From: an uncultured Desulfospira sp.
Lineage (GTDB): Bacteria; Desulfobacterota; Desulfobacteria; Desulfobacterales; Desulfobacteraceae
NCBI GenBank assembly: GCA_963663165.1
Contig: OY760175.1
Span: 4,992,001-5,056,000 of the forward strand
Direction: 5' to 3'
Length of the DNA: 64,000 nucleotides
Position numbers and translations under genes: made by a program. The notes under the pieces were generated by a model. The model saw only the letters and a program-made list of their open reading frames with translations, was not told where the DNA came from and searched no databases. Below, piece after piece: positions 4,443-56,175 of this stretch; positions within the stretch are counted from its first letter, which is position 1, and every line of letters begins with the position of its first letter.

Positions 4443-4474
4443 GTTATCTTTTTAATCGTTCTGTTTTTATTTTG

Positions 4475-4541
4475 TAACTATTCAGCGAATGCTGAAAAAG
4501 GATCAAAAACCAGGGCCCGTAACTGTTCATCAGTGCTTCAT
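4475..4541 (-). repeat. 67-bp dispersed element (family C), copy 1
   Basis: Reverse complement aligns without gaps to 55982-56048 (55/67 identical by hand count). Confidence 0.75.
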
Positions 4542-4626
4542 TTTTTAGTGTCTGGCTGGACAACCAAAGACGGTTCGGTTTCTGCCTTTAACAAATCAAT
4601 TTTACAGGAGGTTAACCGGTTCCGGG

Positions 4627-5319: not shown

Positions 5320-5341
5320 GGTTATAATATTCCTTATAAAA

Positions 5342-9784: not shown

Positions 9785-9988
9785 TATAACGGTCACGGAC
9801 CGTCTTTGGTTATCCAACCAAGCATTGGTCCACAACAAAAAATGAAAGTTTTTTTAGAACTTTTGGTAAAACTTTCATATAACGGCCACGGGCCGCCTTG
9901 GTTATCCAACCAAGAACTGCCCACAACAAATATTGAAAGCACTCAACAGGTTGCTGAGTCTTTCATATAAAACGGCCCCGGGCCGCCC
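9785..9988 (+). repeat. Structured ~90-bp tandem repeat (family A), locus 1: two full units + partial third
   Basis: Units start TATAA(C) at 9785, 9878, 9966; core CTTGGTTATCCAACCAAG...CACAACAAA...TGAAAG-var-CTTTCA. Confidence 0.9.
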
Positions 9989-13891: not shown

Positions 13892-14467
13892 ATGAAACAG
13901 TTTATCATCTCTTTGATTTTGGCCACGGCGGTTCTTTGTTTGGTCGGGCCTGCCCCGGCCGGTGCCGACAGCTATTCTTACACCCTTTCTGTGTTTAAAG
14001 ACTCCCCGGCGGTTCAGCCGTTTTTTAAAAGTGCCTACGGGTATGCGCTTTTTCCTACCATTGGAAAAGGCGGGTTGGTTGTGGGGGCGGCCTATGGTGA
14101 AGGACGGGTCTATAAAGGGGGAACCGCTGTGGGAAAGGTTGTTTTGTCCAAGGTCACTGTGGGGCTTCAATTGGGTGGACAGGCCTTTTCAGAAATTATT
14201 TTTTTCCAGGATAAACGGGCCTATGACGAGTTTACCACGGGCAGCTTTGAGTTTGATGCGTCTGCGTCAGCTGTGGCCATCACGGCGGCAGCCCAGGCCA
14301 AAGCCGGAACAGACGGCACAACGGCCGGTGCTTCTGCAGGCCCTGCCACAGGGGTCCAGGCCGAGACCAATTATCTAAAGGGCATGGCCGTGTTTATCCA
14401 TACCAAAGCCGGCCTCATGGCTGAGATGGCCGTGGGCGGCCAGAAATTTGAGTTTACACCATTCTAA
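13892..14467 (+). CDS. Ysc84/SYLF-domain (lipid-binding) exported protein
   Basis: Signal peptide; FP.IGKGGLVVGAAYGEG, GLQLGGQ, GLMAE.AVGGQKF. Confidence 0.8.
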   Translation: MKQFIISLILATAVLCLVGPAPAGADSYSYTLSVFKDSPAVQPFFKSAYGYALFPTIGKGGLVVGAAYGEGRVYKGGTAVGKVVLSKVTVGLQLGGQAFSEIIFFQDKRAYDEFTTGSFEFDASASAVAITAAAQAKAGTDGTTAGASAGPATGVQAETNYLKGMAVFIHTKAGLMAEMAVGGQKFEFTPF

Positions 14468-19837: not shown

Positions 19838-20206
19838 GGCAAAATAGTTTTTTTAAATTTTAATATAAAGCTTTGAATTTTAAGTGAGTTAATTTAAACC
19901 GGAATTTTGGTGAAAAAATACCACAGGAATGAAGGAAATATAAACAAACAAAAATGTAAAATTAAATTTGTCGGATAAAGACATTTTTGAAATAAAAAAT
20001 TCGTGTGATACATGATCGGCATTGCTGGGCACTGAAAAGAAGGCGTGAAAAATAATTTTGATCACGTTTTTGTGTTTTTAGCGTGGGTCTTGCCGTGAAC
20101 GGCTGGTGTTTTAGCGTGTTGCGGCATAAGTGTAGCGAAAGTTAAATTTTTGCTTTACATTTGCATTGACATTGAATTATTCTGGGACAAAACAGGAGAT
20201 TTGAAT

Positions 20207-20842
20207 ATGCAGCCCCGGTTAACCCCCAAGCAGGAGACCGTGCTGGCCTATCTGAAGCAGGCCATTAAAAAAAACGGCACCACCCCCAGCCTTAGAAGTG
20301 CCGCCGCAGACCTTTCCATCAGCCACGCGGCCGTGGCCCAGATCCTCAAGACCCTGGAAGACAAGGGGCATATCCGGCGGGAGGGCCGGTATTCCAGGTC
20401 CATCCATATCCTTGCCCGGGCCGGAAGCCTGGATGCGGTTCACCGGCACAAGCAGATTCCCATCATCGGCCATATCACCGCCGGGCTGCCCATGTATGCC
20501 CAGCAGGAATGGGAGGGCAGTCTCCTGGTGGATGACGCCGTATATCCGGGGCCGGACCTGTTTGCCTTGAAAATCCATGGGTCATCCATGAAAAACGCCG
20601 GGATACTGGATCAGGATATCGCAGTCTGCCGTCCCCGGCAGTACGCCCGGGACCGGGAGATTGTTGTGGCCCTGATCCGCAATGAAGAGGCCACGGTAAA
20701 GCGATTTTTCCTCCATGGAGAAACCATTGAGCTGCGGCCGGAAAATCCGGATTTCCAGCCCCGGTTTTACGATTTTGACGAAATTTTGATACAGGGAAAG
20801 GTAATCGGTATTATCCGGCCGCCCCAGGGAATGGTGCCATGA
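20207..20842 (+). CDS. lexA: LexA repressor
   Basis: N-terminal wHTH (LT.KQ..VL, TPS), ITAG cleavage site, GSSM and ATVKR catalytic Ser/Lys; AGGAG RBS. Confidence 0.92.
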   Translation: MQPRLTPKQETVLAYLKQAIKKNGTTPSLRSAAADLSISHAAVAQILKTLEDKGHIRREGRYSRSIHILARAGSLDAVHRHKQIPIIGHITAGLPMYAQQEWEGSLLVDDAVYPGPDLFALKIHGSSMKNAGILDQDIAVCRPRQYARDREIVVALIRNEEATVKRFFLHGETIELRPENPDFQPRFYDFDEILIQGKVIGIIRPPQGMVP

Positions 20843-21669
20843 GTTTTGAAAGAGACCTTAACACCAGCTGCGAACTTCTGGTGGGAACCAGCGGGTATTC
20901 CTACTCTGAATGGGTGGATGCCGGGTTTTATCCTGCCGGGACCCATTCGGCTGACATGCTTTCCCGGTATGCCGCGGTATTTAAGGTAACCGAGCTTAAC
21001 TTCACCTGGTACCAGATGCCCAAGGCCCCGGCCATGGAACGTATGGCTGCCCGGGTGGCGGAAGGATTCCAATTCGCTGTTAAACTGACCCGGACCCTGA
21101 CCCATGAAATCCGTCAGGATCAGTGGCAGGGCCAGGCCAGGGAATTCTGCCAGGGGATAGAACCGTTAAAAGAGGCGGGAATGCTGTTGTGCGTTCTGAT
21201 TCAGTTTCCGCCGTATTTTAAGCGAACTGTTGATTCCCGCCGGTACCTGGCCCTCCTTCTGGATGAATTGGCCAGAACCGCTGACGTGTCCCTGGCTGTG
21301 GAATTCCGCCACCATTCCTGGGTCAATGACCGGGTATTTGTCGAATTTGAACGGCGCAGGATATCCCTGGTTACCGTGGATGAGCCGGACCTGCCCTATT
21401 TGTTTCCCCGGCTTGCCGTGGTCACCAGCCCGGATTTGTTTTACGTGCGTTTTCACGGCAGAAATCGCAACGGGTGGGGATCGGGCAGCATGCAGCAGCA
21501 GTTCGACTACCATTATTCAGAACCGGAGCTGGCAGAGTGGGCCGCTTTTGTTCAACAAAACATGGCGCCGGCAGCCCGTCAGGGGGTTTTATTTTTCAAC
21601 AACCACGTGCGGGGGCAGGCCCCGGCCAATGCACAAACGTTAAATAAGCTTTTAGCCGTTAGCGATTAG
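20839..21669 (+). CDS. DUF72 domain protein
   Basis: VGTSGYSY..W, ELNFTWY, QFPP.F, VEFRH.SW, YVRFHGRN, FFNN. Confidence 0.9.
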   Translation: MSFERDLNTSCELLVGTSGYSYSEWVDAGFYPAGTHSADMLSRYAAVFKVTELNFTWYQMPKAPAMERMAARVAEGFQFAVKLTRTLTHEIRQDQWQGQAREFCQGIEPLKEAGMLLCVLIQFPPYFKRTVDSRRYLALLLDELARTADVSLAVEFRHHSWVNDRVFVEFERRRISLVTVDEPDLPYLFPRLAVVTSPDLFYVRFHGRNRNGWGSGSMQQQFDYHYSEPELAEWAAFVQQNMAPAARQGVLFFNNHVRGQAPANAQTLNKLLAVSD

Positions 21670-21699
21670 CCATTAGCTTGGGGTGTCCTGCTAACAGCT
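21651..21699. repeat. Heptamer array overlapping the DUF72 stop codon
   Basis: tttagccgttagcgattagccattagc...gctaacagc. Confidence 0.6.
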
Positions 21700-21714
21700 T
21701 TCGCGAGAACCATC

Positions 21715-22914
21715 ATGGAACGGTCCATCATCCACCTGAACATTGCCGATTTTGCCGCAGCCGTAGAAACCCGGATGTCCCCGGGGCTTACCGGCTTCCC
21801 CCTGATCATCGCCCCTGCCGGAACGGCCCGGGCCGTTGTGTTTGACATGAACAACAAGGCTTTTGAGGAAGGGGTCAGAAAAGGCATGCCCCTGGTCCGG
21901 GCCTGCCGCCTGGTTTCCGGGGCTAAAGTCCTGCCGCCCCGGTTCAACCGGTATGGACAGGTCATGAGACAGATTGCCGGCAAGGCCCTGGCCTACACCC
22001 CTAAAGTGGAGCCGGGCCGGGAGGACGGCCACATTTTCCTGGATGTCACTGGCACCTCCAGGCTTTTCGGCCCGGCCGTGGATGTGGCCTTTCGCCTGAA
22101 AAAAACCGTTAAAAAAGACCTGGGCCTGGATCCTATCTGGTCCCTGGCCACCAGCAAGACCGTGGCCAAGGTGGCCACCCGCCTGGTCAAGCCCGTTGGG
22201 GAATACATTGTGGGGGCCGGAGAGGAGGAGGGGTTTTTATCCCCATTGCCTCTTTGTCTGATTCCCGGGCTTAAGCAGGATGAGCTTTCCCTCCTTAAAT
22301 CCTTTAATTTGTCAACGGTTGACGGGCTTAAGGGGCTAAGCCTGTCACAGCTGGAGGTTCCGTTCCCCGGCAGATCACGGATGGTTCATGACCTGCTTCG
22401 GGGCGTAGATCCCGCCCCGGTATTGCCGGATCAAATGGGGGCCGGAAACCGGGTCCGGGCCGGCCGGGAATTTGCCCGGGATACCAATGACCAGGAGGTG
22501 ATTAAGGCTGGTCTTTACGCTTTGGTAGAAGAGATCTGCATATCCCTTCGGCAGCAGGGACTGGTGATAAAATCCTTTCGCATTGTCCTGTCCCATTCCG
22601 ACGGAATTCAATGTTCCGCCAAAGGGAAGCTGACCCCGTGGGGGGATGCCGAGTCCGCCGTATTCAAGGCCTGCACCCGGATTCTGGCCCGGGCATGGAC
22701 CCGGCGGGTAAGGGTCCGCCATATGGAACTGATCTGTGAAAAGGCGATTTCCCCGGCCTTGCAGGGAGACCTGTTCGGTGAGCTGCCGGGCAAAAAACAG
22801 CTGGAACGGCAGGCCCGGCTGGCCCAAACCCTGGATAAAATCCGGGACAAATTCGGCCCTGGCGCTGTGAGGCCGGGGTTGGCGCTGGCGGGGGATGACG
22901 GCACCCCACGATGA
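21715..22914 (+). CDS. imuB: Y-family DNA polymerase homologue, probably catalytically inactive (ImuB-like)
   Basis: DinB-fold motifs (IIHL...FAAAVE, GV.KGM, KTVAKVA..KP.G) but catalytic acidic motifs degenerate; QGDLF clamp-binding motif; abuts dnaE2. Confidence 0.8.
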   Translation: MERSIIHLNIADFAAAVETRMSPGLTGFPLIIAPAGTARAVVFDMNNKAFEEGVRKGMPLVRACRLVSGAKVLPPRFNRYGQVMRQIAGKALAYTPKVEPGREDGHIFLDVTGTSRLFGPAVDVAFRLKKTVKKDLGLDPIWSLATSKTVAKVATRLVKPVGEYIVGAGEEEGFLSPLPLCLIPGLKQDELSLLKSFNLSTVDGLKGLSLSQLEVPFPGRSRMVHDLLRGVDPAPVLPDQMGAGNRVRAGREFARDTNDQEVIKAGLYALVEEICISLRQQGLVIKSFRIVLSHSDGIQCSAKGKLTPWGDAESAVFKACTRILARAWTRRVRVRHMELICEKAISPALQGDLFGELPGKKQLERQARLAQTLDKIRDKFGPGAVRPGLALAGDDGTPR

Positions 22915-25900
22915 TCCCCCTGAGCCTGAGATCCCATTATTCCCTCATGTGGGGAGTTCCGTCGATCAAGGAACTGTGCCGGCATGGGGCCGCCCTGGGG
23001 TATCGCCGCATGGCCCTGACCGATACGGATAACCTTTACGGCATGTGGGATTTTATTGCGGAATGCCGGTATAACGGTATTTCGCCCATTATCGGGGCTG
23101 AGGTCACGGACCCGGTTGAATCCCACAGGGCGGTCTGCCTGGTTAAAAACAGCCAGGGCTTTACCGGGCTGTGCCAGTTGCTGACCCGGCGCCACAGGGA
23201 TGAATCCTTTAATTTAAAACAACGCCTTCCCGAATTTTCCCAGGGGTTGCTGGTGCTGACCAAATCCCCGGAGCTGTTACGGTTCTTTCACAGTCATGAA
23301 GTGGATCTGGCCGCCTTTATGCCCCGGTGTCCGTCCGCCGGCCACCGGGACCTGATGGGGCTTTCCCGTAAACTTGGGCTGCCCGTGACGGCCGGGCCGG
23401 GCAGTTTTTTTCTCCACCCTGGAGATGCGGCGCTGCATGCCATGCGCCGGGCCATCGACCGGAATACCTGTGTAAGCCGCCTTGCCCCAGGCCAGGTCGC
23501 GCCGGACAATGCCTTTTGGGGTCCTGCCGGGCTTTATGAACAGCGGTTCTCGGCATTCCCACAGGTCCTGGAAACCAGCCGAAAGCTTGCGGAAAAGCTG
23601 GAATTTGAAGGGCCTGATTTTGGCATTGTCATGCCCCCGTGGCCCAAAGAGACCTGCCCGGCCCATGAGGTCCTGCGAAGAAAAACCCTGGAAGGGGCTG
23701 CCAAACGATATAAAACCCCGCTTGAGCCCCGGGTTGTCCAAAGGATCGACCATGAGCTGAACATTATCCAGCAGAAAAATTTTTGCTCCTATTTTTTAAC
23801 GGTCCAGGACATTGTGTCCGGGGCCTCCCGGATCTGCGGCCGGGGGTCCGGGGCAGCATCTCTTGTGGCCTACTGCCTGGGGATCACCAATGTCTGTCCC
23901 TTGAAACACGATCTGTACTTTGAACGGTTTCTTAACCCGGATCGAAAAGATCCGCCGGATATTGACGTTGATTTCGCCTGGGATGAACGGGACGACCTTC
24001 TGGAGCAGGTTCTGAACCGGTTTAAAGGGCACAGCGCCATGGTGTCAAGCCATATTCTGTTCCAGCCCCGGATGGCGGTCCGGGAGGTTGCCCGGGTTTT
24101 CGGCCTGCCTGACCGGGAAATTTCAAAAGTTTCCAAACGGATGCCCTGGTTCTGGAATCAGGATATGGTAGGCCTGGATCTGCTGGAATTTATTAAAAAA
24201 GATCCTAAATTTAAATTTACGGATTTTCCTGAACCCTGGCCAGAGATCATGGCCCATGCAAGGGCCCTTGTGGGAAGCCCCCGGCATTTGTCTGTCCATC
24301 CCGGCGGTGTGGTGATCACGCCTTCTCCCATTGACCATTATGTGCCCATTGAAACCGCGCCCAAGGGCATTGCCCTGATGCAGTGGGACAAGGACGGGGC
24401 GGAAACCGCCGGCTTAGTCAAGATCGATCTTCTGGGCAACCGGAGCTTAGGCGTGATCCGGGATGCGGTGGAAAGCATCCGGGTATCTGCCGGAAAATTT
24501 GACGATTTTGAGCAGATAGACCCGGAAGATGATCCCAAAACCCAGGAAACCGTGGCTGACGGCCGAACCATGGGCTGTTTTTATATCGAAAGCCCGGCCA
24601 CCCGCCTGCTCCAGAAAAAATCAAAGGTCGGGGATTTTAACCATGTGGTCATTCATTCCTCGATTATCCGGCCGGCGGCCAACGACTATATCAAGCTTTA
24701 CCTTGAGCGGCTCCACACCGGGGTTTGGGACCCTATCCACCCTCTGATCGGGGATCTTTTAGACGAGACTTTCGGCATCATGGTTTATCAGGAGGACGTT
24801 TCGAGGGTGGCGGTCCGCATGGCCGGGTTTGGCCATGCCAAAGCAGACGGTCTGCGCAAGATCATGTCCAAAAAGGACAAGACCCGGGAGCTGGCCGATT
24901 TTTACCGGCAGTTTGAGCTGGGCGCGGCCCGAAAAGGGGCCGGTCTCAAGGATATTCAGACGGTCTGGAACATGATTGTAAGTTTTTCCGGTTATTCCTT
25001 TTGCAAGCCCCATTCCGCCTCCTATGCAAGGGTTTCTTTTCAGGCGGCCTATTTGAAAACCCATTACCCGGCCCCGTTCATGGCCGCTGTTATCAGCAAT
25101 CAGGGCGGGTTTTATTCCACCTTTGCCTATGTGTCCGAGGCCCGTCGGGCAGGACTGGCCATTCTGGGGCCGGACGTCCAGGAAAGCAAAATCCGGTGGG
25201 AAGGAAAAGGCCGGAACCTGAGGGTGGGGCTGATGGCGGTAAAGGGGCTTGGCCGGGAGACCATGAACCGGATTATAACGGAGCGGGATAAAAGCGCTTT
25301 CACAGACCTGGAGGATTTCTTAAGCCGGGTTGGGCCCCGGAAAGATGAGATAACGGCCCTGATTCACAGCGGCTGCCTGGACCGGTTTGGCATGGAAAAG
25401 GGCCGGGGAGCGCTGTTATGGGCATCGGCCTGCCGGGCCAGGCCGGGTAAAACAAAACAGGTTAGGCCCTTTGAGCCCTCTTTGTTTGATGTTGCGGCAA
25501 TGGCGCCGGATCCGCCTGAACTTCCGCCGGACAACCCCATGGACCGGTTCAGGCAGGAATTCGGGGTGCTGGGGTTTTTATGCGCCTGTCATCCCATGGT
25601 TCTTTACAGGGAAGTTATTGAAAAGGAAAATTCAATTAAAGCTGACCAGCTGCCCGCCTGTGTGGGTCGGCAGGTGGTGTTTGCCGGATGGCTGATTTCC
25701 GGTAAGACCGTTCAGACCAAACAGGGGGAGCCCATGAAATTTCTTACCTTTGAAGATGAAACCGGCCTGGTTGAAACCGTGTTTTTTCCCCAACCCTATG
25801 TCCGGTTCTGCCACATGCTGACCTATGGCCGCCCGTATTTTCTCAAGGGAAAGGTCGAATCCGACTGGGGAGCCGTGACCCTGACCGTTTCTGTGACCTG

Positions 25901-25940
25901 GCCGGTTCCCGCCGGCAGGGATAAAAATTCAAAAATGTAG
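22911..25940 (+). CDS. dnaE2: Error-prone DNA polymerase III alpha subunit
   Basis: PHP domain (SHYSL, ALTD), GRGSGA.SLV, FERFLNP.R..PDIDVD, HPGG, YSFCKPHS, C-terminal OB fold; 1009 aa in a LexA-led cassette. Confidence 0.9.
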   Translation: MIPLSLRSHYSLMWGVPSIKELCRHGAALGYRRMALTDTDNLYGMWDFIAECRYNGISPIIGAEVTDPVESHRAVCLVKNSQGFTGLCQLLTRRHRDESFNLKQRLPEFSQGLLVLTKSPELLRFFHSHEVDLAAFMPRCPSAGHRDLMGLSRKLGLPVTAGPGSFFLHPGDAALHAMRRAIDRNTCVSRLAPGQVAPDNAFWGPAGLYEQRFSAFPQVLETSRKLAEKLEFEGPDFGIVMPPWPKETCPAHEVLRRKTLEGAAKRYKTPLEPRVVQRIDHELNIIQQKNFCSYFLTVQDIVSGASRICGRGSGAASLVAYCLGITNVCPLKHDLYFERFLNPDRKDPPDIDVDFAWDERDDLLEQVLNRFKGHSAMVSSHILFQPRMAVREVARVFGLPDREISKVSKRMPWFWNQDMVGLDLLEFIKKDPKFKFTDFPEPWPEIMAHARALVGSPRHLSVHPGGVVITPSPIDHYVPIETAPKGIALMQWDKDGAETAGLVKIDLLGNRSLGVIRDAVESIRVSAGKFDDFEQIDPEDDPKTQETVADGRTMGCFYIESPATRLLQKKSKVGDFNHVVIHSSIIRPAANDYIKLYLERLHTGVWDPIHPLIGDLLDETFGIMVYQEDVSRVAVRMAGFGHAKADGLRKIMSKKDKTRELADFYRQFELGAARKGAGLKDIQTVWNMIVSFSGYSFCKPHSASYARVSFQAAYLKTHYPAPFMAAVISNQGGFYSTFAYVSEARRAGLAILGPDVQESKIRWEGKGRNLRVGLMAVKGLGRETMNRIITERDKSAFTDLEDFLSRVGPRKDEITALIHSGCLDRFGMEKGRGALLWASACRARPGKTKQVRPFEPSLFDVAAMAPDPPELPPDNPMDRFRQEFGVLGFLCACHPMVLYREVIEKENSIKADQLPACVGRQVVFAGWLISGKTVQTKQGEPMKFLTFEDETGLVETVFFPQPYVRFCHMLTYGRPYFLKGKVESDWGAVTLTVSVTWPVPAGRDKNSKM

Positions 25941-27786: not shown

Positions 27787-27902
27787 ACCGGTTTTGGTCA
27801 GGGCAGTAAATTTTATAAGAAACTGGAGACAAGAAACAAGAGACAAGAGGGCGAAGCACCTGCGGTGCCCAATTTATAGTCTACCGTTGCTGGTATCTTC
27901 AG

Positions 27903-27963
27903 TTTCATTATTCGTTGTGGACGGTGCTTGGTTGGATAATCCAAGCCGTCCGTGACGGTTATA
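27903..27963 (-). repeat. Structured repeat family A, locus 2 (single unit, minus strand)
   Basis: Reverse complement identical over 50 nt to the unit starting at 28739. Confidence 0.88.
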
Positions 27964-28738: not shown

Positions 28739-28882
28739 TATAACCGTCACGGACGGCTTGGATTATCCAACCAAGCACCGTCCACAACAAATATTGAAAG
28801 TCTTCTCAGGACGTTAGTGAGACTTTCATATAAACCGTCACGGACGGCTTGAATTATCCAACCAAGAACCGTCCACAACAAA
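28739..28882 (+). repeat. Structured repeat family A, locus 3 (one full unit + core of second)
   Basis: TATAACCGTCACGGACGGCTTGGATTATCCAACCAAG...CACAAC units at 28739 and 28829. Confidence 0.9.
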
Positions 28883-43652: not shown

Positions 43653-45140
43653 TTAAAACGAAACATTTAAACCGATAAGCATATTGAATCCCGGAAACGG
43701 GTAGAATGTTTCACTGCCGGGATCACCATCGCCGGTGCCAACAACGCTCTGATCAAAAATGTTGTTCGCCGCTGCATAGAACTCAACCCGGCCGAATGTT
43801 TTTGCATACCGGGCATTTAAGACCCAATCGCCATCTTCTTCATTGGTGTTGGCATAGTTGAAATAGCGCTTGCCCGTATACACCGGATTAATTGAAATAT
43901 CGCCCAAAGTTTCGTGTCTATAGCCCAGCTTCAAGGCAAACATCATTTCCGGTATACCGGTCAGGTAATTTCCGGAATAATCCACGCCCCCGCTGATAAA
44001 CTCATCAAACTTAGACTCCTGCCAGGTGAAGCTGGCCGAAGCGTAAAAACCATGGGGCAACCTGGCATTGGCCCCCATTTCCACACCTGTGGTGCTGGTC
44101 TCTCCTGCGTTTTCATATTGTCCGGTCCAAAAGTTCGCAGTGGGCCTGACAAACTTATCGGTTACGTTTTGCCAGAAAACAGCCAGATTGTAGTCCAGCC
44201 AATGGGAAATATTGCCGCGAACACCGACTTCATAGGAATAGAGCTTTTCCGGGTTCAAATCACCATTGGTAAACCATTGCCGTAATCTTACCGGGCTTTT
44301 CATGCCGGTGTTAAATCCTGCAAACAGGTTTACTTCATCACACAATTGGTAGGTGAGGCCGATCTTGGGGCTCAAGGCGTTGTGTTTTGAAGACCAGGTG
44401 CTGGAACTTGCCATATTGGCTTCTTGCTCCAGATCAAAATAGTCGTATCGTATGCCGGCGGTAATGGTGAGGGCATCGGTTATTGCCAACTCATCTTGCA
44501 GATAAGCCGCATAACTGATGTCTTCCCGGGAAAAGTCCTGATTTTTGGCTATCAAGTCATGAAAACTGACGGCTGTATGCCTTATTCCATGAAGATCATG
44601 ATACCGATACTCGGCGCCAATCACCAGCTTGTTTGCCATGCCCCCGATGTCATGGTTAAAGGCCATGCGCACTTCCGGGTGCGCTACTACCGAATCAGCA
44701 CCCATATAATAATAACCGCTAAACATTCTCCAGCTAGTGTCCTGCGCTTCTATTTTGCACATGAATTCATGGGGCCCCAGGTTTTGTTCATATACAAGTG
44801 CGCCCAGGCTTGCTTCGTTTTCGGAATAATAATCAGGGCCGGTGTTCGGATTTTGGGTGGGATCTTCGTTAAATTGTTCCCGGGTCATGCCTGCCGTGTA
44901 ATTTCCTTTTGAATCCGTGTATGAACCATGAAAAGCAAGGGTGGAATTATTGTTCAGGGACCGCTTCACCGTGGTGTATACATTATTGATATCAAAATAC
45001 CCCCCGTCCTGATAAGAATCTTCGCGTGTTAAGGAGGCGTCAAGGTAGTATTCCCAATTCTCATTAGAACCATTGATCACGCTATAGGCATTGCCGCTCC
45101 CAAGGCTTGTATAGGCGACTCCGGCCTTGGCTTCCAGGGG
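43653..45140 (-). pseudogene. TonB-dependent receptor 1, C-terminal (barrel) part, IS-interrupted
   Basis: LQDE, TAGIRYD, SPKIG, L.PE..SYEVG, NNIFD, terminal Phe; joins in frame with 47614-48165 after IS removal. Confidence 0.9.
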
Positions 45141-45154
45141 GGGTGCATTCCCAT

Positions 45155-46555
45155 TTAGTGGCCTAAGCAAAGTGACCGAATTTGTATGAAGATATTGTCA
45201 GTCAAGATGTTCCACCTCCCGGAAAGGAGCTGACTCCTTAAGAACAACATTGATTCGGATGTTTCCGGTTTCCAGAATATACCCGGTGATTTCATTCTGA
45301 GATTTATAACCCGACGTATTGCACTTTCAACACAGCCGCTGCCAGTAGGTATTTTCAGGCTGCAGAACTGGCGATACTGCATTCTGTTTCGATTTTTCAC
45401 GAAGTAACTTTTAAATTTGGATAGTGCTTCTATGCGCCTTTTAGGGTACGTAATGTGTTTTACAATTTCTTTTCTAAGGTCTTTGAATCTGCCATCCCAA
45501 AGGAGGTTCTTCCAAGATTCTGCTATCCGGTTTCTTTCTTTTATAGGGATTCTCTTTGGCAATTTGTCCACGATTTCATGTAAATTCTGTTTTGCATGGG
45601 TGTAGTCGATTACCTCATAATAGGATTCGATTTCAAGCCGTTTGGCCAGCGGGCCTGTTCGCTTCCAATAGCTACGTGCACCGTCACAGCAGAAAACAAC
45701 ACGCTTGGCTTTGGGAATATCTAATTCACGCAAGTAGATCTCAAGAATATCAAAAGCGGCATCAATACCGCCCATTGTGGCATCATAAACCGGCAAGTGT
45801 TTTTTGGATATTGTGCCGTCCGGATCGACAATATGTATGACAAACTGAATGGGTTCTTTCCATTCAGCATGATATCCCTGCCGCTTTTGGCCTTTTGATT
45901 TACGTCCCCGTTTTGGCCTCCGTTCTCGAAGGCGACCGCCGTCGATACAAACCAGAACCGTTTTGCCACCAACGCGATCAGTATCTCCAAAAGATACCCG
46001 GCCACGCAGGGGCATAGCTTCCTGTGCAAGATTCATTGTTATGCGGCGTATGGTTTTGACATTTAAGTTGATTGCATGGTTTTCCAGGGATCTTCGGGCA
46101 ATTTCAAAAGAGGGACAGAGCAATGCTGCATGGACCACCGACGAAGCGAACAGCGTTGAACACCTGCCGATAAAACCAAGGTAATCAAGCCCAAAATGGC
46201 GGCCTGTCCCCTTTTGTCGTTTTTTTGTTTTAGGGCCTGGCCGTTGTTTGGAAACAACTTTTGAAAAGTAAGGGGATCGGATGCTCAGGGTAGTTCCTGT
46301 CAATAATCGAATGCTGCTGGGGCGGTATCCGTTGAAACGCAGTCCCTTTTTACCGGCACCAATTTTCAGTTCAGATAAAAGATCCGGGTCAGACAGTGCC
46401 TTTTCAATGACGGGAACCAGAAATGCTTCCACAATAATGAAGAGGCCGTTCCGTACCTGCTCACACAGGATATTAGCATTTTGATGGTTTTGGAAATCAG
46501 CTACGGCTTTTGTTAGAAGGGTTCGAATATCCCTTATAGTGGAAGCAAGTTTCAT
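45155..46555 (-). CDS. DDE transposase (ISKra4/ISLre2/UPF0236-like)
   Basis: CIDGG, CCDGA..W, DYTHA (DxxH), GSGCVESAIRRVI..RMK..G..W; stop codon inside the TIR. Confidence 0.85.
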   Translation of the reverse strand: MKLASTIRDIRTLLTKAVADFQNHQNANILCEQVRNGLFIIVEAFLVPVIEKALSDPDLLSELKIGAGKKGLRFNGYRPSSIRLLTGTTLSIRSPYFSKVVSKQRPGPKTKKRQKGTGRHFGLDYLGFIGRCSTLFASSVVHAALLCPSFEIARRSLENHAINLNVKTIRRITMNLAQEAMPLRGRVSFGDTDRVGGKTVLVCIDGGRLRERRPKRGRKSKGQKRQGYHAEWKEPIQFVIHIVDPDGTISKKHLPVYDATMGGIDAAFDILEIYLRELDIPKAKRVVFCCDGARSYWKRTGPLAKRLEIESYYEVIDYTHAKQNLHEIVDKLPKRIPIKERNRIAESWKNLLWDGRFKDLRKEIVKHITYPKRRIEALSKFKSYFVKNRNRMQYRQFCSLKIPTGSGCVESAIRRVINLRMKSPGIFWKPETSESMLFLRSQLLSGRWNILTDNIFIQIRSLCLGH

Positions 46556-46612
46556 GATCAGTCCTCGAATTGCAGGTTGAAAAATTACCTGTCATTTCGA
46601 TGACTGAAACCC

Positions 46613-47485
46613 TCAAGGTTGTGTGCATAGCTGCTTTTTATAATTGGAAGTCAACGGGTATACATAGATGTCTTTTATCGGCACCTGAAGTCTGTGGTGC
46701 CTGTCTTGACGGCTTCGCCCTTTGCTTTGACCAATTTTTTGCCAATTTGCCGCCTGGTAGCAAGTTCCGGCAAAGCGTGATCGATCCACGAAAGTTTCTA
46801 CCAGACAGATATCGTGACCATATTTAGCTGTCCAGTCCCGGCTCAGCCGCCTAAGACATGAACCCAGAATATGACTGGCAAGATGGGGAATTCGAATCCA
46901 TGGCAAAATCAAAAATCGGGTATTGTTGGTCGTCATATGCAGGTTCCTGCGACGAGCCGACCTATCCCAACCGATGAATCGGTCACGAGGGGCCGTTTTC
47001 CATGCTGCTGAGCCAAAAAGCAGGCAGGCAACCGGACGAGAATTGCGATCAAAAGCCATATACTTCATATGTTCTCCGACATACCCTTTACACCCAAGGT
47101 AATGATATCGATCCATAAGGCAATGGAATAAATCATCAATATCTCCACGGCCCGATACCGGTATCAATTGTATCGGGCGGATCTTACGCAAAGTGGTTTC
47201 TATCGGCTTACAATCATGGGGGACATCGGGAATACGCCGCTGACGGTTACCGCTATGACGGGCAACGGGAAGTGTGACCATCCCTTTTTGCTCAAGTTTT
47301 CTCAGCATGCTTCGACAGGCCATGTCCTTGAGCAGACCTTTTTCCGTGCGCCAATCCCAGCGAGCACACAATTCTTTGGATAAACGAGTGCGGTGCCAGG
47401 CGGGATTGTCGTTAATCAAATGGCGTATCGTTTGTATATCAACTTCTGAAAATTCACGTCCTTGAATGGTTAAAGTCCTGCTCAT
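46613..47485 (-). CDS. DUF4338 / Druantia DruA-like protein
   Basis: R..LS..LC..W.W, HYLG, RDRFIGW, NNTRFLILPW...HLAS.IL, ETFVD..RF.GTCY.AANW..IG..KGR. Confidence 0.85.
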   Translation of the reverse strand: MSRTLTIQGREFSEVDIQTIRHLINDNPAWHRTRLSKELCARWDWRTEKGLLKDMACRSMLRKLEQKGMVTLPVARHSGNRQRRIPDVPHDCKPIETTLRKIRPIQLIPVSGRGDIDDLFHCLMDRYHYLGCKGYVGEHMKYMAFDRNSRPVACLLFGSAAWKTAPRDRFIGWDRSARRRNLHMTTNNTRFLILPWIRIPHLASHILGSCLRRLSRDWTAKYGHDICLVETFVDRSRFAGTCYQAANWQKIGQSKGRSRQDRHHRLQVPIKDIYVYPLTSNYKKQLCTQP

Positions 47486-47613
47486 GCAAATCTATATAAC
47501 CTTTCATGAGCCAGGAGTCCAGCTTTTTTTGGGAGGGCAGAGTATTCAATGCAGCATGAAAAACGGAAAAATTGGATACATGTCAGTTCATGCCACTAAA
47601 TGGGATTGCACCC

Positions 47614-48165
47614 TTCCAGGGGTTTCTTTGCCTTCCGGGTAATGATGTTGATAACGCCGCCCATGGCCTGGTCTCCATATTCAGCCGATGGGGTTTTGAT
47701 GATCTCAATGCGCTCTATATCATGCACTGCCAGGCGCCCGGGCCTCATGGCGCCATTTCCATTATTGAGTTCTATGCCGTTGATCATCAACCTCATTCCC
47801 CACTGGGTAAGCTCACTGCCCCTGCTGCTCACCGAAATATCGATATCTACAGGACTGTGGGGGAGATACAGTCCCGGTATATTTAATTCCTGCAACAAGG
47901 TGAGCGCGTTGTAATGACCCGGATACTGTTCTATTTCTTCCCGGGAGACGACGCTGACATTGGTGGGTATTTTATCCACCTCGGTGCTCATCTTGGTTGA
48001 GGTGACGATTATATCGCCAAGATCAGTAGTTTTGGAATCTTCTTTATCATCCTGGGCCCACCCGGGCGGACAGGATAAAAGAAAGATCATTAGTGTGATA
48101 AAGGCAAGGTAAAATATTGATATACCAGTGCTGCTTAATTTTTTTTCCTTAACTGCATCAACCAT
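47614..48165 (-). pseudogene. TonB-dependent receptor 1, N-terminal (signal + plug) part
   Basis: Signal peptide, DIIVTS TonB box, IERIEIIK.P...YG..AMGGVINIIT plug motif. Confidence 0.9.
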
Positions 48166-49560: not shown

Positions 49561-51520
49561 CAGGAGTTTCGGAGATAAGCCTCTCGGGATTGCTGAACGC
49601 CTTTATTGATAAGCCTTTTCGGCTCTGCCTTTTGTAGTACCCCTCAAATCAAGCCGCCTTCTATGTTAAAAACCCTGTCAAATAGGGCTTTCTATTATTT
49701 TTCTCTTGACTTGTAAGACCCTACCATATACTATGAAGCATGGCACATTTCCACATTAAGAAGAAAAAAGGAAGACCCTACCTTTATGTGAGGGAGATCG
49801 CTCGGGTAAACGGCAAGCCCAAGGTCATTTCTCAAACCTATATTGGGTCACCGGATCGGGTAGCGGGCCTTGTGAAGGGACAGTCCCAGGAAATAACAAC
49901 CTTGAGGGCTGAAGAATTCGGTGCGCTGTGGCTGGCCCAGCAAGCAGATAAAGACTTTGATCTTTGCTCTTTGATTGATGAGATTATTCCACCTGCAGAT
50001 CGAGAAAAAGGACCTACAATAGGGGAATATTTCCTTTATTGTGTCTGGAATCGCATGATTGAGACCGCCAGTAAAAACAAATTGTCGGATTGGTATAAGA
50101 GAACCGCGATCCAGCATATACGCCCTGTCGATCTAAACGAACTCTCATGCAAACGATACTGGGACAAATGGGACCGGGTTGATGAAAAAAACTTAAACGC
50201 TATCATATCCAAGTTCTTTGAACGATTATGGCAGGTCGAAAACCCTTCTTCTGATTGCCTGCTATTTGACACCACTAATTATTATACCTTCATGGGAAGC
50301 CAAACCGAGTCAGAAATAGCGCGCAGGGGTAAAAACAAGGAAGGGAGGCATCATCTCAGACAGATCGGCCTTGGCCTTCTGGTTGCACGAGACACCAGGC
50401 TCCCTTTATTTTATTCGATTTATCCAGGCAACATTCATGATAGCAAACACTTTGAAGCGGTCATGGAGGCAGTGTTTGGGGTAGTATGCGCCCTGAACAA
50501 GACCAAAGAGCGGCTTACAATTGTTATTGACAAGGGAATGAATTCAGAAGGGAATTATACCTGGATTGACGAGCATTCCAGGGTCCATTTTATTACGACA
50601 TATTCCACTTATTTTGCCCAGGAACTTGCCACCATCCCACTCGACCAGTTTGAAATTGCAGATACTGCCCGAAACAGAAGGTTGATTGATGAAGAATGCC
50701 AGGATGAGTGTCAATTGGCACATCGGACCAAAAAAGAATACTGGGGCAAGGAGCGGGCAGTTATCATAACTTATAACCCCAGAACAGCCCGAAAGAAATC
50801 ATACACCTTTGAAAGCAAGCTTGATACGATCCGACAGGAACTGCTCTTAATGAGGGCCAAGGTGAAAGAAGGGGCCGTTCACTGGAAAAAAGCCGAGGAC
50901 ATACAAGCCAGATATATCCGGTTGTGTCAAAGGCTTCACATGGCCTCCGATTTATTTACTCTGAATTTTGAAACCTCAGAAGATGGCTTGAATATGAGCT
51001 TCCGAAAAGATCCATACATAGTGAAGCAAAAAAAAATGATGTTCGGTAAAAATATTATCATCACAGATAATACGGATTGGGCAACAAGAGACATTATTGA
51101 AGCGAGTTTAGACCGCTGGCAAGTTGAAGACCGCTTCCGTCTCAGTAAGAATGAGGACTTAGTCGGTGTGCAGCCGATCCGGCACTGGACTGACAGCAAA
51201 ATCAAATGCCATTTATTTACATGTGTGGCAGCCATGGTTTACCTGCGCCGAATTGAATTAAAACTAAAGAACTCCGGAATTGAACGGACAGCAGAGGACG
51301 TCATGGATGATATGAAGCATCTACATTCCATTTTGACGTTGCCGAAAGGTGCAAGAAAACCGACCAGGCGCCTTGAGACGCCGAGTAAGACCCAGGCCGA
51401 AGTCCTATCGGCCTTTGGCTATCATGTTAATGAAGGTGGGGTCTTACAGTCAGAAAATTGAGTTACGCCCGCCAAGCAAGGCTTTCGCCGAGCCATGCCC
51501 TCTTAACCACGAAACTCCTG
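49561..51520 (+). mobile_element. 1960-bp IS1634-family insertion sequence
   Basis: TIR caggagtttcg / cgaaactcctg (16/19 match when extended); 5-bp target duplication TATAA at 49556-49560 and 51521-51525. Confidence 0.9.
49740..51461 (+). CDS. IS1634 family transposase
   Basis: Y.Y.RE..RVNGKPK, LFDTTN, RGKNK.GR..L.Q, YPGN.HD, IDKGM.S, R..VE..FR..K, PIRHW.D..I..H. Confidence 0.9.
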   Translation: MAHFHIKKKKGRPYLYVREIARVNGKPKVISQTYIGSPDRVAGLVKGQSQEITTLRAEEFGALWLAQQADKDFDLCSLIDEIIPPADREKGPTIGEYFLYCVWNRMIETASKNKLSDWYKRTAIQHIRPVDLNELSCKRYWDKWDRVDEKNLNAIISKFFERLWQVENPSSDCLLFDTTNYYTFMGSQTESEIARRGKNKEGRHHLRQIGLGLLVARDTRLPLFYSIYPGNIHDSKHFEAVMEAVFGVVCALNKTKERLTIVIDKGMNSEGNYTWIDEHSRVHFITTYSTYFAQELATIPLDQFEIADTARNRRLIDEECQDECQLAHRTKKEYWGKERAVIITYNPRTARKKSYTFESKLDTIRQELLLMRAKVKEGAVHWKKAEDIQARYIRLCQRLHMASDLFTLNFETSEDGLNMSFRKDPYIVKQKKMMFGKNIIITDNTDWATRDIIEASLDRWQVEDRFRLSKNEDLVGVQPIRHWTDSKIKCHLFTCVAAMVYLRRIELKLKNSGIERTAEDVMDDMKHLHSILTLPKGARKPTRRLETPSKTQAEVLSAFGYHVNEGGVLQSEN

Positions 51521-54997: not shown

Positions 54998-55182
54998 TAT
55001 AAACGGTCACGGACCGTCTTTGGTTATCCAGCCAAGCATCGGTCCACAACAAAAAATGACCGTCTTTTCAGCTTGCTAGCAAGACTTTCTTATAACGGCC
55101 ACGGGCCGCCTTGGTTATCCAACCAAGAACCGCCCACAACAAATATTGAAAGAACTCAAAAGGTTGCTGAGTCTTTCATATA
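54998..55182 (+). repeat. Structured repeat family A, locus 4 (two units)
   Basis: Units at 54998 and 55091, same order of variants as locus 1; begins immediately after the receptor stop codon. Confidence 0.9.
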
Positions 55183-55272
55183 AAAACAACCACAGACGGA
55201 TTGTTTGTTAACCCTGGTCCGTCCAATTTTTCAGCCTTTTGGGGGACTTCCTTATAAAAAAGAGGATTAGGA

Positions 55273-55905: not shown

Positions 55906-55981
55906 AATTGTGAAATCATACAATTATCAGGGTCGGAAATATGAAAGATTCGATCCTGATAACTCAATGGGCTAAACAAAT

Positions 55982-56048
55982 ATGAAGCACTGATGAGCAG
56001 TTACGGAACCTAATTTTCGCTTATTTTTCATCATTAGCCGAATAGTTA
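55982..56048 (+). repeat. 67-bp dispersed element (family C), copy 2
   Basis: Colinear with reverse complement of 4475-4541. Confidence 0.75.
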
Positions 56049-56175
56049 AAAATAAACAATTTTGACAAAAAAACGGAAGATTTTGATATCCGGGCCTGCT
56101 CCAAAAGGGTTATCCTTTCCTCCGCATTTATCATTATTAGACATGACAGGGCGTTTGAGCAAAAACAATAACATC

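Follow-up and report, generated by a model that had tools for sequence, protein, structure and literature searches.

What is the roughly 90-base unit that is repeated in tandem near position 9785 of the window, a 64,000-nt stretch of the genome of an uncultured Desulfospira sp. (contig OY760175.1), and by what means does it spread? The first-pass annotation described four loci with seven cores and a fragment, held that the structure of the unit is selected, and proposed either a two-state structured RNA or a single-stranded DNA hairpin element of REP/BIME type. All four loci, the seven cores and the fragment could be located in the window, together with an eighth, degenerate copy that had been overlooked, a hairpin module on the minus strand that adjoins another repeat family (approximate bounds 4530..4585). 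The inner motif has seven matches in the window for 0.82 expected, a number reached in none of 100 shuffles, and the folds of the units gave z values of -3.2 to -5.7 (8/8 folds). An Rfam search of the window yielded no match at gathering score. As had been stated, the neighbouring genes of the window include no protein gene common to the surroundings of all loci.

At locus 1, on the plus strand, an AA core (9788-9789) precedes unit 1 (9790..9880), which consists of a hairpin module with a CACAAC box at its end (9790-9836), a 6-nt spacer, a subterminal inverted-repeat stem (9843-9877) and TAT, a layout found again in the autonomous element described below. Unit 2 (9883..9972) follows head to tail via AA, with its hairpin module at 9883-9927, its stem from 9934 and a terminal A run at 9969-9972. 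Behind it comes the degenerate head of an older unit (9973..9985). Since this head stands alone at the orthologous site of a sister genome (G001), it probably belonged to the insertion target of locus 1. Locus 2 is real, but the extent first given to it (27903-27963) was too short: it is a complete 144-bp unit on the minus strand (27958-27815) with a long internal stem variant, and spans 27811..27958 with its terminal A run. Locus 3 is real as well and holds one complete unit on the plus strand (28744..28831), whereas its second unit (28835..28879, plus) is limited to the left-end hairpin module and lacks the right half. At locus 4, unit 1 (55004..55093, plus) begins right after the stop codon of a TonB-dependent receptor gene and is followed by unit 2 with a terminal A run (55096..55186, plus); the same two variants, in the same order, make up loci 1 and 4, as reported. 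In G001, the sites of loci 1, 2 and 3 are empty and that of locus 4 is filled, the match covering the full 3112-base query.

A profile built from the seven window cores was run on the whole 6.74-Mb source genome (G000), and returned 325 matches at E<=10, 291 at 0.01 and 267 at 1e-5. The copies form 250 clusters, namely 187 single, 53 double, 8 triple and 2 quadruple. Among 24 further genomes from this taxonomic family, 6 also contain the repeat; none of the 16 more distant genomes searched does. Units start directly after ..TAA (T in 117, A in 131 and A in 130 of 133 solo left flanks) and end with TTTC-A/T-TATAA, then A in 115 of 119 cases. Between these limits, a hairpin module of the form C-x-CAYG-x'-loop-x''-CACAAC is followed by six bases and by the stem TGAAAG..CTTTCA. 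The interior of this stem had been called variable; it is rather one of few recurrent types, of 31, 33 or ~90 bases, common to many loci. AAC occurs twice per unit, in direct orientation. In integron attC sites, inverted R boxes (AAC ... GTT) bound the stem, and attC was rejected on the ground that the AAC boxes are here direct.

Could these units be REP or BIME repeats spread by a RAYT or by another HUH transposase, of the IS200/IS605 or IS91 type? They are palindromic, exist in hundreds of copies and are mostly extragenic, 134 of 139 parsed arrays of G000 lying outside long ORFs according to simple ORF calls. They also show GTGG before the bottom-strand stem and no terminal inverted repeats. 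REP and BIME sequences associated with a RAYT form inverted pairs that flank the RAYT (Y1) gene. Here, however, 59 of the 63 multi-copy clusters of G000 are arranged head to tail, with 55 of 71 same-strand spacings measuring 88-94 bases, and the copies show no replichore strand bias in this genome. Not one of the 14 Y1/RAYT loci (PF01797) of the genome is flanked on its two sides by the repeat, the closest single copies being ~0.7, 1.1 and 1.6 kb off, and the IS91-type loci are 1.9-44 kb away from the closest copy. As the ends of the unit moreover match an IS110 element, this reading is largely refuted and we give it hardly any credence. Partners of the IS200/IS605 and IS91 types were searched for, and none proved linked to the repeat. 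The genome does contain a RAYT-like gene (L012, G000:C1:1953030-1956389) whose flanks bear GTAG-type palindromes of its own, distinct from the repeat studied here.

The IS110 element is encountered at the right ends. G000 has 299 right-end motifs, 71 of which lack an upstream hairpin module, and three of those 71 terminate one larger element of 1744 bp (1.74 kb), present in three copies with identical ends, all outside the window. This helper element encodes a protein of 419 aa with a PF01548 match and an NF033542 score of 237.9 bits (cut-off 140). Like other IS110-family recombinases, the protein combines an N-terminal RuvC-like DEDD domain with a C-terminal catalytic serine domain; it matches the structures of IS621 and ISCro4 (PDB 8wt6, 9t56), and its residues D22/E73/D109/D112/S310 are invariant in 11 of 11 aligned homologues. 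Its closest named homologues are from Desulfobacterales. One of the helper copies (G000:C1:4366462-4368205, L034/L037) interrupts a large kinase-like gene, and another is itself interrupted by a different IS.

From the AA core inwards, the left end of the helper consists of four bases, CATG, a small hairpin, CACAAC, six more bases and TGAAACACT; the right end is AGTGTTTCA-TATA-AA. The repeat unit has the same layout, except that in the helper a gene is placed inside the stem: the TGAAA/TTTCA stem of the miniature is the subterminal inverted repeat of the helper, and the covarying hairpin is its left end. At the junctions of both helper and miniatures the core is AA on both sides, without a long target duplication, although A runs make it hard to count the A's exactly; the core is AG, AA or AT in distant clade members. 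One helper copy directly precedes a degenerate unit in G000. In the related genome G005, all five full-length homologous elements lie directly behind repeat units, and two are also followed by units, which is not the case of a sixth, partial match. The identity between the inverted repeats of the miniatures and those of the resident IS is limited to five bp, TGAAA/TTTCA, and no autonomous element with the exact miniature inverted repeat was found. G001 contains many units, yet no match to the helper transposase. In the distant clade members L133, L139 and L142, short gene-less units with the same ends were seen beside the full element.

The comparison with G001 was based on 43 fetched stretches of that genome. 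Of 45 parsed arrays of G001 and 131 of G000, 25 and 12, respectively, were placeable and the remainder was not. G000 lacks 14 of the 25 placed G001 arrays, and G001 lacks 5 of the 12 from G000, which gives 19 empty sites among 37 placed arrays, 10 of the 19 aligning within 6 bases on both sides. They place the insertion point immediately behind ..TAA; both junctions carry AA, to which the right one mostly adds one to five A's, within the limit that a flank identity of 80-99% sets to base-exact reading. Altogether, the shared ends, the empty orthologous sites and the full element inside the G005 arrays point to an IS110 miniature rather than to a REP sequence or a new RNA. The units are short, non-coding, multi-copy and provided with the ends of an autonomous IS, as MITEs are, and they are almost certainly non-autonomous IS110-family miniatures bearing both ends of an IS of the same genome. 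The first-pass annotation had named a match to an IS end as evidence against its own interpretation, and the unit is indeed made of the two ends of an IS110-family element.

What, then, of the three-way covariation initially described, in which the central segment x' would pair with x upstream or with x'' downstream, the three changing together? The upstream half stands firmly: x:x' is perfect in 127 of 150 parsed units of G000, 73 of 75 of G001 and 15 of 25 of G005, and six different complementary x/x' types recur across genomes. The downstream half is mostly imperfect, with x':x'' perfect in 23 of 150, 25 of 75 and 15 of 25 units of the same genomes, and at least 4 of 5 pairs formed in 121 of 150, 72 of 75 and 24 of 25; in mosaic units the triple is broken. 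A C-C mismatch interrupts the x':x'' stem of the most frequent miniature type (100/210). In the autonomous elements the situation is reversed. Upstream, at least four pairs can form in just 1 of 46 left ends, whereas in the left-end stem 121 of 138 inner pairs are Watson-Crick (46 distinct ends, loops of 7-14 nt) against a null of 66 with a maximum of 83, covariation being judged by pair counts and by permutations whose nulls ignore kinship. The two alternative pairings hence exist in miniatures, and the upstream one is confined to them. Absent from 45 of the 46 autonomous left ends, it is not needed for the basic mechanism. By these counts, the left-end hairpin of the autonomous elements is kept by compensatory change, which supports the earlier statement that the structure is selected and that the unit is a single-stranded DNA hairpin element. 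This hairpin is much longer in miniatures than at autonomous ends.

Two mutually exclusive pairings are also what one would expect of a two-state structured RNA kept for regulation. Such a reading would further benefit from the recurrence of the six x/x' types across genomes although autonomous ends lack the pairing. On the other hand, no Rfam family matches, arrays occur in all four orientations to the neighbouring genes (46/35/33/20, simple ORF calls), and copies are present or absent between sister genomes as insertion polymorphisms. We thus consider a regulatory RNA very improbable. The upstream pairing of the miniatures may reflect selection or template switching, and the units may have secondary effects on transcripts.

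If the units are IS110 miniatures, they are likely copied and inserted in trans by the RNA-guided recombinase of that family, and the region behind the transposase gene would yield a two-loop bridge RNA. The helper gene is followed by a long non-coding region of ~370 nt, downstream of the transposase gene as in the IS1111 group. In 27 sequences, a conserved structured RNA segment is predicted with two conserved stems and 11 pairs, 6 of which show two-sided changes, whereas the single-sequence fold of the helper RNA is no better than shuffles (z -0.74). As judged by covariation, this predicted RNA contains segments that match both target and donor, as in the IS110 family. A miniature nested in the helper was considered as the source of these non-coding motifs and rejected, since the motifs change with the flanks of each element. 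The predicted RNA is found downstream of its gene within one clade of 23 rows (support 100/100) and also, separately, in L192/L193/L197, and upstream in most other relatives, including 51 of 55 distant ones; from this distribution, it has moved relative to the gene at least twice.

The target loop would read both target strands in the usual way. The target-left guide (g1) copies the left flank and core. Across 27 distinct RNAs it matches at 93 of 108 positions (null 38, maximum 62), and for the three bases adjoining the core at 78 of 81; for flanks with three A's, the register was set by the base that follows the core. On the other strand, the 5' side of the target loop corresponds to the reverse complement of the right flank, as is canonical, in 75 of 160 positions in the distant clade (null 47, maximum 64), this figure being the best of 18 registers and including seven rows that stem from a single element; the near clade shows a weak target-right guide (p 0.005-0.25 over 4 registers). 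The g1 of the local helper is ATAT-AA and equals the element's own right end, which accounts for the stacking of units: new copies would land at the ends of old ones, and arrays would grow. The terminal A run lengthens with array size (mean 4.2, 5.1 and 5.6 for one, two and three units; rho 0.28, p 0.002, 126 arrays), and we infer that longer A runs fit such landings. The left flanks of the 126 G000 arrays are mainly TAT (44), AAT (28) or ACT (27), with C coupled to A (p 5e-6). In 55 of the 126, AAT or ACT stands before the core and mismatches the resident guide, so that other helpers or loose targeting must be assumed. ACT and AAT flanks match the guides of other clade members, and several helpers have probably acted over time. 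No end-to-end joint was found in the contigs of 4 public runs (X1, X4, X6, X16), contigs being assemblies that drop rare forms; the RNA run among them, X16, contained diverged relatives only.

The donor guides are of a different kind. The right-end guide (g3) is a copy of the right end and core. Of 40 distant elements, in which the right end was parsed independently of the guide, 24 match at 7/7 and 32 at 6/7 or better, 7 of the 40 rows being copies of one element. The near-clade figure of 177/180 is not relied on, as the right end was there picked by guide match and 10 loci were dropped. The inner guide (g2) copies the box that follows the left-end hairpin. Its positions 4-5 agree with the box in 24 of 24 cases over 12 distinct distant RNAs (null 14.7, maximum 22); g2 was located solely via the neighbouring RNA stem, and these RNAs come from the 22 loci, of 78 distant ones, that yielded both parts. 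When near and distant elements are taken together, 48 in all, the match is 90 of 96 (null 66.7, maximum 83), with apparent mis-parses left in and only positions 4-5 tested, because the parser fixes positions 2-3. On our reading of the tree, box and g2 change together on at least five branches. Both donor guides are direct copies of one strand, and the inner site lies 20-50 nt inside the left end. Reading of opposite strands of a duplex donor adjoining the core, as in IS621, was not found, and no segment complementary to the variable bases beside the left core was seen in the aligned RNAs.

That the two donor guides read one and the same strand, with a hairpin between their sites, points to a single-stranded donor folded back on itself. 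The donor is probably gripped as a hairpin rather than as a double helix. Both donor-loop guides would pair with the bottom strand, one with the right end and AA core, the other with the ACAAC box inside the left end. Once the ends are joined, this strand would fold into the inverted-repeat stem, a bubble and the left-end hairpin. The fold-back arm would replace the absent partner strand, and the two guide sites would face each other across the bubble, restoring the normal geometry of the donor loop. An analogy can be drawn with integron attC sites, which act as a folded strand. In natural head-to-tail junctions the bottom strand is the more stable one in 53 of 57 cases, by a mean of just 1.15 kcal/mol; pairing of the inverted repeats is seen in no more than 37 of the 57 bottom-strand folds. 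The release of a single-stranded circle by IS621 (10.64898/2026.08.31.748434) and the excision and insertion of one strand by CazIS110-1 (10.1101/2025.10.25.684509), as described in the accessible parts of these reports, would by analogy fit a fold-back donor.

The same IS110 miniature could nevertheless be served by an ordinary duplex donor, or by the right-end half-match alone, the hairpin and inner guide only modulating efficiency or acting elsewhere. In ISPpu9, mutation of the left palindrome did not stop circle formation in end-point PCR (PMC12288879), and IS621 manages with donor half-matches (10.64898/2026.08.31.748434), according to the available text of both sources. Within G000, at least two miniatures are without the hairpin module and begin with the inner AAC (C1 56089, plus; C1 5704167, minus), which suggests occasional crossover at the box. 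The stem mismatch of the commonest miniature type also counts against the fold-back donor, which needs that stem. What speaks against a duplex donor is that the 46 autonomous ends maintain the stem by compensatory change and that no segment able to pair with the variable bases beside the left core was seen in the aligned RNAs. On balance, we regard a duplex or half-matched donor as unlikely, and favour the fold-back donor. More broadly, we propose that in a wide IS110 clade (Thermodesulfobacteriota, Chloroflexota, Bacillota and others) the donor loop would read a self-folded strand. The excised single-stranded circle would be ready for insertion without second-strand synthesis, so that 90-base miniatures could reach hundreds of sites, and the second, competing hairpin of the miniatures, beside the crossover, would switch the end from bound to released and back. 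To this overall reading we assign a probability of roughly 0.55.

A parallel can be drawn with ISPpu9 and MITEPpu9 (the ssr9 module) of Pseudomonas putida KT2440, where an IS110 element and a gene-less module with its ends are found adjoining and in tandem (PMC12288879). As given in Tables S4 and S5 of that paper, ISPpu9 resembles the present helper by a long left box, in which a palindrome follows the 2-nt core at a distance of a few bases, and by a right box composed of the inverted-repeat motif, 5 nt and the core. MITEPpu9 differs by its 8 copies, small RNA gene, AG core and REP target, compared with the ~250 sites seen here, and in the accessible part of the paper the donor guides of ISPpu9 are not mapped (PMC12288879). 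From what is available on IS621 and ISCro4, these share with the helper the DEDD and serine recombinase, a two-loop RNA, a 2-nt core and a target loop reading opposite strands (PMC11208160; PMC13626964; 10.1101/2025.05.14.653916). There, each loop reads both strands of a duplex beside the core (PMC11208160), whereas here both donor guides represent one strand with a hairpin between them, and the RNA of the helper subclade is downstream of the gene, unlike in IS621 and ISCro4. The IS1111 group, with its seekRNA, is close by its subterminal inverted repeats, its downstream non-coding region and a target loop in which the top-strand match comes before the bottom-strand one (PMC11187229). According to the accessible text of that source, its inverted repeats are of 11-13 bp and stand 7 bp inside the left end and 3 bp inside the right one, which is not what the helper displays, with 9-bp repeats and, in place of the 7 bp, a 30-nt left extension containing the hairpin (51-53 nt in miniatures). 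Expanded IS110 loci have been described in which tandem non-coding units lie beside IS110 genes (n = 468), with left-donor matches at the unit boundaries; these are local expansions, and the available text mentions neither a dispersed miniature family nor a hairpin donor (10.64898/2026.08.14.744561). Finally, a DNA hairpin aids recognition by the IS110 recombinase of ISPpu10, but it is situated in the target in the portion of the report at hand, and here in the element's own left end (10.64898/2026.03.19.712850).

IS110 miniatures (MITEPpu9), tandem IS110 non-coding units and the target hairpin of ISPpu10 are accordingly already known from these partly available sources. The literature searched, in which subscription journals are largely uncovered, contained no description of a same-strand fold-back donor or of the present repeat family in the accessible parts of its reports (including PMC13626964, PMC13604230, 10.64898/2026.10.21.760802 and 10.1101/2025.05.14.653916); the supplements to 10.64898/2026.10.21.760802 (bridge-RNA clusters) and 10.64898/2026.08.14.744561 (repeat units) may include the clade. 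The current development of bridge recombinases for genome editing assumes that duplex DNA is what both guide-RNA loops read. If a clade with a folded-strand donor exists, it would explain how single-stranded IS110 excision products are inserted, and hairpin-capped single-stranded donors would suggest themselves as cargo. The 90-base miniatures represent a minimal end pair, with hundreds of natural variants for mapping the important bases. An IS110 element can also give rise to a REP-like genome-wide family, and some repeats called BIME-like may be misassigned.

Several other features were seen in the window. A second repeat family, at 4464-4545 and 55978-56059, often abuts miniatures elsewhere in the genome and is probably another small mobile element. 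Short tandem heptamer or decamer repeats, some in inverted pairs, occur at 5334, 7482, 17390, 21640 and 37056 as well as at 14461 and 35702. A LexA-like repressor, a DUF72, an ImuB-like and a DnaE2-like gene in a row at 20150-25940 compose a damage-inducible mutagenesis cassette, and a DDE transposase gene (PF01609) lies at 49740-51461. At 43653-48165, a TonB-dependent receptor appears to be split: its plug (47596-48165) and barrel (43653-45170) are separated by 2.4 kb of sequence bounded by inverted ends of 29 bp (45134-45162, 47592-47620), whose ORFs encode a DruA-like protein (PF14236) and a 466-aa protein without Pfam match.
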